Source: a phage
Strand: one strand, 5' to 3'
Length of the DNA stretch: 252 bases
Sequence record: BH153091.1
In this document: positions 1 through 252 of the stretch, piece by piece
Numbering within the stretch: the stretch's first letter is position 1
Layout of the letters: every line of letters begins with the position of its first letter
Position numbers and translations under genes: made by a program
Notes under the pieces: generated by a model
The model's input: only the letters and a program-made list of their open reading frames with translations
What the model was told of the DNA's origin: nothing
Database searches by the model: none

Positions 1-86
1 TATATGAATACTCCGTTTTCGAACCAAACGACGGAACTATTCGATTCGAAAAACGTCATCCTACATTCGGTGGCGCAATTGATGTA
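1..86. other. Cloned insert DNA of unidentified origin (non-vector part of a recombinant clone)
   Basis: Sequence 1-86 matches no lac/pUC element I recognise and abuts the polylinker at the BamHI-side junction. It contains two TTCGAA palindromes (18-23, 45-50) and a CAATTG site (76-81). Origin cannot be determined without a database search. Confidence 0.5.
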
Positions 87-125
87 GATCCCCGGGTACC
101 GAGCTCGAATTCGTAATCATGTCAT
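61..125 (-). CDS. lacZ: lacZ-alpha reporter 5' end (vector-borne), interrupted by the polylinker insert; short fusion ORF ends in the insert
   Basis: Minus strand reads ATGACATGATTACGAATTCGAGCTCGGTACCCGGGGATC..., i.e. canonical ATGACCATGATTACGAATTCG... minus one base. First ATG (125-123) gives ATG ACA TGA, an immediate stop. Second ATG (120-118) opens a frame encoding MITNSSSVPGDLHQLRHRM, with TAG at 63-61. MITNSSSVPGD is the known pUC18 lacZ-alpha N-terminus. Confidence 0.8.
87..112. other. pUC18/M13mp18-type multiple cloning site remnant: BamHI-derived GATC junction, SmaI/XmaI, KpnI, SacI, EcoRI
   Basis: Directly seen: GATC 87-90 preceded by A (AGATCC 86-91, BamHI site not regenerated), CCCGGG 91-96, GGTACC 95-100, GAGCTC 101-106, GAATTC 107-112. 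This order with EcoRI next to the lacZ start is the pUC18/mp18 orientation. Confidence 0.9.
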
Positions 126-138
126 AGCTGTTTCCTAG
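121..138 (-). other. M13/pUC reverse sequencing primer site and lacZ Shine-Dalgarno (AGGA, minus strand 133-136)
   Basis: Reverse complement of 121-138 is CTAGGAAACAGCTATGAC, versus the standard M13 reverse primer CAGGAAACAGCTATGAC. The match is exact except for one extra A at position 137. AGGA sits about 7 nt upstream of the ATG at 125. Confidence 0.85.
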
Positions 139-143
139 TGTGA

Positions 144-164
144 AATTGTTATCCGCTCACAATT
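144..164 (-). promoter_or_regulatory. lacO: lac operator O1 (LacI binding site)
   Basis: Plus strand 144-164 is AATTGTTATCCGCTCACAATT, the reverse complement of the canonical O1 AATTGTGAGCGGATAACAATT. Exact match as recalled. Confidence 0.9.
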
Positions 165-169
165 CACAC

Positions 170-199
170 AACATACGAGCCGGAAGCATAAAGTGTAAA
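170..199 (-). promoter_or_regulatory. lac promoter (Plac): -10 TATGTT at 170-175 and -35 TTTACA at 194-199 on the minus strand, 18-bp spacer; transcription runs toward decreasing coordinates
   Basis: Plus strand AACATA (170-175) and TGTAAA (194-199) are the reverse complements of the wild-type lac -10 and -35 hexamers. The 18-bp spacer 176-193 (CGAGCCGGAAGCATAAAG) matches the canonical lac spacer. Confidence 0.88.
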
Positions 200-211
200 G
201 CCTGGGGTGCC

Positions 212-234
212 AATGAGTGAGCTAACTCACATTA
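212..234 (-). promoter_or_regulatory. CAP/CRP binding site of the lac promoter
   Basis: Plus strand 212-234 AATGAGTGAGCTAACTCACATTA is the reverse complement of lac CAP site TAATGTGAGTTAGCTCACTCATT. TGTGA and TCACA half-sites are present; one T is missing at the distal edge (between 211 and 212) relative to canonical. Confidence 0.85.
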
Positions 235-246
235 ATTGCGTTGCGC

Positions 247-252
247 TCACTG
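247..252 (-). pseudogene. lacI: 3' terminus of the truncated lacI remnant carried by pUC-type vectors (last codon CAG plus TGA stop); continues beyond the window
   Basis: Reverse complement of 241-252 is CAGTGAGCGCAA, matching the end of lacI (...GGGCAGTGA) followed by GCGCAACGCAATTAATG upstream of the CAP site. Only two codons fall inside the window. Confidence 0.6.

Follow-up and report, generated by a model that had tools for sequence, protein, structure and literature searches.

The lac cassette of the pUC vectors places transcription of lacZ-alpha under the control of CAP and LacI, and this lac segment is common to pUC18, M13mp18, pUC118, pK18 and similar vectors. The native E. coli lacI-lacZ control region, the evolutionary source of positions 113-252 of the stretch studied here, has neither the EcoRI-creating base change nor the polylinker, and it runs into lacZ codons 5 onwards. 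A further relevant system is RB49p262 of Escherichia phage RB49 (Krischvirus RB49, Straboviridae), a 252-codon gene whose product is a hypothetical protein (NP_891833.1, 252 aa).

We analysed the whole 252-base stretch of sequence record BH153091.1, hereafter called the window, and found two parts that meet at GATC, positions 87-90. From the lacI stop to BamHI, the window has the same order, spacing and sequence as the pUC18/M13mp18-type lacZ-alpha multiple cloning site (MCS) cassette (the vectors of Yanisch-Perron, Vieira and Messing). It differs from that cassette by four single-base indels (at about 121, 137, 165 and 211) and by a destroyed BamHI site, which reads GGATCT instead of GGATCC on the minus strand. 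With respect to RB49p262, the window holds only 29 of the 252 codons, in frame, and the last five codons and the stop (QYVCK-stop) are replaced by vector. We consider with high confidence that the window was read from a laboratory clone and is composed of a 90-bp RB49 restriction fragment and untrimmed pUC18/M13mp18-type vector. As such it is an artefact of human making, and no natural genome has it as a feature.

When positions 87-252 (166 nt) were compared by BLAST with 72,556 plasmid records, full-length matches (100% of the query, 97.6-98.2% identity, E = 4e-71 to 1e-72) came only from a handful of small, vector-bearing plasmid records, and the match to vector is far beyond chance. The local alignment to the pUC-derived part of U36911.1 spans exactly 87-252 with 165 of 169 columns identical (97.6%), and the two sequences differ by four 1-nt indels and by no substitution. 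In U36911.1, blaTEM-116 lies about 1 kb from the match. An earlier note on this DNA had assigned 87-252 to a pUC18/M13mp18-type backbone, placed the boundary at 86/87 and expected 97-98% identity to the pUC lac region. BLAST, base-by-base alignment and the positions of the sites confirmed the assignment, the observed identities bear out the expectation, and the boundary is right, with the local alignment starting at 87. The following elements were located in this part.

87-91, minus strand: BamHI half-site GGATC, the end of the '18' polylinker at the junction.
87-112, minus strand: polylinker in '18' orientation, with SmaI/XmaI at 91-96, KpnI at 95-100, SacI at 101-106 and EcoRI at 107-112.
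112-125, minus strand: lacZ-alpha start, read as ATGACATGATTACG, with ATG at 123-125 and one C of ATGACCATG missing at about 121-122.
121-136, minus strand: M13 reverse primer site, with an extra base at 137, where CACACAGG is read as CACACTAGG.
133-136, minus strand: Shine-Dalgarno AGGA, within the M13 reverse primer region 121-138.
144-164, minus strand: lac operator O1 AATTGTGAGCGGATAACAATT, an exact 21-mer, with one G missing just upstream at about 165.
170-199, minus strand: wild-type lac promoter, with -35 TTTACA at 194-199, an 18-nt spacer and -10 TATGTT at 170-175.
212-231 (region 211-231), minus strand: CAP/CRP binding site TGTGAGTTAGCTCACTCATT, with one A missing alongside at about 211.
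247-252, minus strand: last codon and stop of lacI (CAG TGA), by alignment to a native locus in which the lacI CDS end is annotated.

The lac control region (CAP site, Plac and lacO1) and the lacZ-alpha start thus occupy 113-252 of the minus strand at the expected spacing, and the lac promoter on that strand was picked up by a generic promoter scan as well. A synthetic polylinker follows lacZ codon 4, with EcoRI beside the ATG and then SacI, KpnI, SmaI and BamHI. Polylinker, lacZ-alpha start, lacO1, Plac, CAP site and lacI had been described in the earlier note as lying in the order and spacing of pUC18, and all of them were found, on the minus strand. Two of the elements it named need qualification. 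The M13 reverse primer site is present at 121-136 but is broken by the extra T at 137 and the missing C at about 121, and the lacI tail is present but only 6 nt long. A search of both strands of the window against Rfam at a permissive threshold found nothing. In this sequence the lac cassette performs no native biological function.

The polylinker of the window is identical to the MCS in U36911.1 and GQ149343.1. Past the junction, U36911.1 continues with GGATCCTCTAGAGTCGACCTGCAGGCATGCAAGCTTGGCACTGGCC, the remainder of the '18'-orientation polylinker, and base-by-base alignment showed that the reference vectors run on through XbaI-SalI-PstI-SphI-HindIII. By every feature that falls inside the window, the vector belongs to the '18'-orientation lacZ-alpha family, within which pUC18, M13mp18, pUC118 and pK18 are alike over the window; the term 'pUC18/M13mp18-type' in the earlier note leaves room for this. 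pUC18 and M13mp18 are inseparable here because the XbaI-HindIII polylinker and the backbone (bla/ori or M13 genes) lie outside the window. A full-length match to M13mp18 was not obtained in the phage collection, which evidently does not contain M13mp18.

The searches also returned several other records with such a cassette. In GQ149343.1 (L001:1029-1260), GQ149346.1 and GQ149348.1, which are presented as natural plasmids of E. coli from the gut of giant pandas, a pUC18-type lacZ-alpha/MCS is intact from EcoRI to HindIII; these records probably contain cloning-vector sequence. A lac promoter and the start of lacZ-alpha, 95-97% identical, were also found in the short unannotated 'phage' records OR844963.1, OR845556.1 and OR848931.1 (1.5-3 kb; phages of Enterococcus, Escherichia and Listeria) and in Z35638.1, a 3.1-kb record labelled phiX174, and these are probably further phage records that contain vector. 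Two small plasmids of non-enteric hosts, CP041081.1 (Bacillus tropicus, 9.9 kb) and NZ_CP067031.1 (Agrobacterium fabrum, 14 kb), contain a lac/MCS cassette that matches 87-96% of the query at 98% identity, and they are likely to be laboratory shuttle or binary vectors deposited within genome assemblies.

Much of the vector part is also shared with E. coli itself, and the window might be read as a native lac region, chromosomal or carried on an F' or other plasmid, lying beside unrelated DNA. Positions 107-252 match 5,340 of 5,426 complete E. coli genomes at 94-97% identity, and many Klebsiella and Enterobacter plasmids are matched as well. However, these native matches comprise 107-252 only, F' plasmids and the Klebsiella lac plasmids likewise match only up to position 107, and positions 87-106 found no match in any native lac record in the plasmid and E. 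coli genome searches. After ATGACCATGATTACG, native lac reads GATTCACTGGCC, while the window reads AATTCGAGCTCGGTACCCGGGGATC. Native loci read ACGGATTCACTGGCCGTCG after lacZ codon 4, whereas the window has ACGAATTCGAGCTCGGTACCCGGGGATC, which is synthetic polylinker, and a lacZ that continues ATGACCATGATTACGGATTCACTGGCCGTCG free of polylinker is not what the window contains. No native E. coli lac locus has the EcoRI-creating change ACGAATTC (native ACGGATTC) or the polylinker. A native lac locus is refuted by the base-by-base alignment, given the polylinker in the window, and we assign this reading a negligible probability. The earlier note had likewise thought a native chromosomal locus improbable, and the check has now been run, with native matches ending at position 107.

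The four indels that separate the window from the reference vectors are listed below.

About 121: C lost, ATGACCATG read as ATGACATG.
137: T gained, CACACAGG read as CACACTAGG.
About 165: G lost, GTGTGGAATT read as GTGTGAATT.
About 211: A lost, CATTAGGC read as CATTGGC.

All four fall between 121 and 211, in the later half of the read, and as read the lacZ-alpha frame gives M-T-stop. None of the reference vectors compared has all four together. The loss that turns ATGACCATG into ATGACATG recurs in GQ149343, and this recurrence suggests a systematic reading artefact. The four single-base indels most likely represent base-calling errors, although four of them within 121-211, a supposedly clean Sanger region, exceed what a good read gives. 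That they are real mutations of an undescribed vector variant, or that an engineered RB49-type phage or host strain replicates with this junction and an integrated lacZ-alpha vector, seems to us quite improbable. At the transcription-start region, the native lac locus of E. coli E2865 (L003) reads GTGTGAAATTG where the vectors read GTGTGGAATTG, and at this polymorphic spot the window lost a base and reads GTGTGAATTG. The E2865 difference is probably a natural polymorphism at that position and irrelevant to the window.

The other part of the window is phage DNA. Positions 1-90 are 100% identical to RB49 NC_005066.1 157942-158031 on the reverse strand. Eight other Krischvirus records are also 100% identical over 1-90, and about 40 further relatives match at 97-99%. 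RB49 is most likely the source of the insert but not the only candidate, since nine Krischvirus genomes are identical over it. Two features describe this part and its end.

1-86, plus strand: insert, the coding strand of RB49p262 in frame +3 (YEYSVFEPNDGTIRFEKRHPTFGGAIDV..), with 100% DNA identity to an annotated CDS.
87-90, no strand assigned: GATC ligation junction, at once a native RB49 site and the vector BamHI core by three-way alignment.

Window frame +3 (YEYSVFEPNDGTIRFEKRHPTFGGAIDVD) matches the C-terminal region of RB49p262, five codons before the stop. Collinearity with RB49 ends at position 90, where RB49 continues AATACGTTTGC; past that position no phage record matches the window, and none joins both halves. 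When the insert was searched against plasmids and E. coli genomes, only chance-level matches were obtained in the former and no match in the latter, and therefore it is not host or plasmid DNA. A 29-mer from the insert had zero matches in the viral contig collection, and none of the three open 28-29-aa insert frames matched in a Pfam scan.

The gene itself, at 1849-2607 of the RB49 locus examined (L004; NC_005066.1 157925-158683), is represented in the window by its C-terminal part, positions 3-89. Gene 52 and the holin gene t flank the variable region in which it lies. The N-terminus of its product resembles a signal peptide. Residues 24-76 form a 'lysozyme inhibitor' domain (Pfam LprI/DUF1311; 26 bits, cutoff 22, E = 1.3e-5), and beyond it come an acidic linker and a C-terminal domain without assignment. 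By analogy with T4 Spackle, one might speculate that RB49p262, as a secreted lysozyme-inhibitor-like protein, could take part in superinfection exclusion.

The junction between the two parts was examined by three-way alignment. After it, RB49 continues GATCAATACG and the vector GATCCCCGGG; past position 90, RB49 reads GATCAATACGTTTGC and the window GATCCCCGGGTACC, which is vector. The overlap of the two parents at the join is 4 nt only, GATC. Directly before window base 1, RB49 reads ...GGCAAGAAAGATC. In the RB49 locus, GATC sites are found at L004 2497-2500 and 2587-2590 (the latter being window 87-90) with none between, and therefore the insert is one complete 90-bp GATC-to-GATC fragment. 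The locus contains 30 GATC sites in 5,090 nt, about one per 170 nt, and the chance that both ends fall on adjacent sites, calculated from this density, is about 3.5e-5. The left site, AGATCT, doubles as a BglII site. AGATCA, on the right, is not recognised by BamHI, BglII, BclI or BstYI, and the cut there thus calls for a four-base GATC cutter. The one normally used is Sau3AI, which differs from MboI and DpnII in being insensitive to Dam methylation. The enzyme would have been of the Sau3AI type.

A GATC end ligated into BamHI-cut vector gives exactly the GGATC followed by T that is seen instead of GGATCC. The window, which takes in the right-hand vector junction only, has the features of a Sau3AI-in-BamHI clone, namely native GATC at both insert ends and a retained vector GGATC half-site. 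The 4-base overlap, which equals a cohesive end, and the second end on the neighbouring site point to a probable ligation in vitro, and neither an assembler chimera nor natural recombination is expected to give such a pattern. The earlier proposal, which named neither the insert nor its two GATC ends, can be refined: in all probability the insert is a cloned 90-bp Sau3AI-type RB49 fragment in a BamHI site, with GATC at both ends.

We also considered whether the junction was produced in silico, by an assembler that joined contaminating pUC18-type reads to RB49 reads, with no physical molecule behind it. Both parents are common laboratory DNAs, and the errors fall in the vector half with none in the phage half. 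The 32-mer across the junction had zero matches in the viral, genome and metagenome contig collections, which fits such a chimera. However, the 4 nt shared by the parents are far below any assembler overlap and are exactly the BamHI/Sau3AI cohesive end. Moreover, the other end of the phage part falls exactly on the neighbouring GATC, for which an assembler has no reason. This explanation is very unlikely in our judgement.

The same junction would be seen in an engineered or recombinant replicon, that is, an RB49 derivative or a host in which a pUC18-type plasmid had integrated through cloned homology (insertion or substitution type), and the window alone is silent on what lies beyond either of its ends. 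Against this, 90 bp of homology is very short for such constructs, and no Krischvirus record carries lac sequence. The record also starts exactly after the left GATC, which fits vector trimming and not a longer phage context. We hold the engineered replicon to be just as unlikely as an assembler product. Under the clone reading, the sequence upstream of window base 1 would be vector XbaI-BamHI TCTAGAGGATC, as opposed to the GGCAAGAAAGATC of RB49. Three readings, the assembler chimera, the integrated construct and the native lac locus, were thus considered and rejected, and we are strongly inclined to see the window as a sequencing read, or the deposited record, of a recombinant clone.

We propose the following origin of the record, a cloning history inferred from the sequence alone. 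RB49, or a relative identical in this region, would have been cut by a Sau3AI-type four-base cutter, and the 90-bp fragment would have been ligated in vitro into a BamHI-cut pUC18/M13mp18-type vector, in which it lies antisense to Plac. Since the reverse-primer site and all that follows it are within the read, priming would have been from the universal-primer or HindIII side. The read would then have crossed the tiny insert and SmaI-KpnI-SacI-EcoRI, passed the lacZ-alpha start, lacO1, Plac and CAP site in turn, and gone as far as the stop of lacI. On the left the vector appears to have been trimmed through GATC, while the 162-166 vector bases on the right would have been left in. The left junction of such a clone would read ...TCTAGAGGATCTATATGAAT. 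With the missing C restored, the lacZ-alpha frame would give the fusion MTMITNSSSVPGDLHQLRHRM-stop, and therefore a white colony or plaque on X-gal would be expected. Desplats et al. in 2002 reportedly obtained 'randomly sequenced small fragments' that cover about 20% of RB49, and these would be a natural source for the record. A search of the full-text literature for RB49 with Sau3A gave nothing relevant.

The join also creates an open reading frame. In frame +3 of the plus strand, positions 3-116, the phage gene runs into the polylinker and ends at the stop TAA at 114-116. The product would be a chimeric peptide of 37 aa that ends in AIDVDPRVPSSNS (full product YEYSVFEPNDGTIRFEKRHPTFGGAIDVDPRVPSSNS), and an exact look-up of YEYSVFEPNDGTIRFEKRHPTFGGAIDVDPRVPSSNS found none on record. 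This phage-polylinker peptide is an artefact, which a gene caller would report as a partial gene.

In place of native genome the earlier note offered two alternatives, vector contamination and a cloned-fragment read, of which the second is correct. Its advice to treat apparent novelty as artefact first is upheld, since both halves, the pUC18/M13mp18-type lacZ-alpha MCS and the RB49 genome, were already known and contain no novel biology. The importance of the finding is one of data hygiene only. Synthetic cloning vector makes up about two thirds of the record (166 of 252 bases), and whatever it seems to show in the way of a promoter, operator, ORF or 'phage-bacterium gene transfer' is an artefact. 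We advise masking the vector at positions 87-252 and giving no weight to any regulatory or coding novelty that appears there. Bases 1-90 alone are worth keeping as RB49 sequence, and NC_005066.1 already covers them fully.
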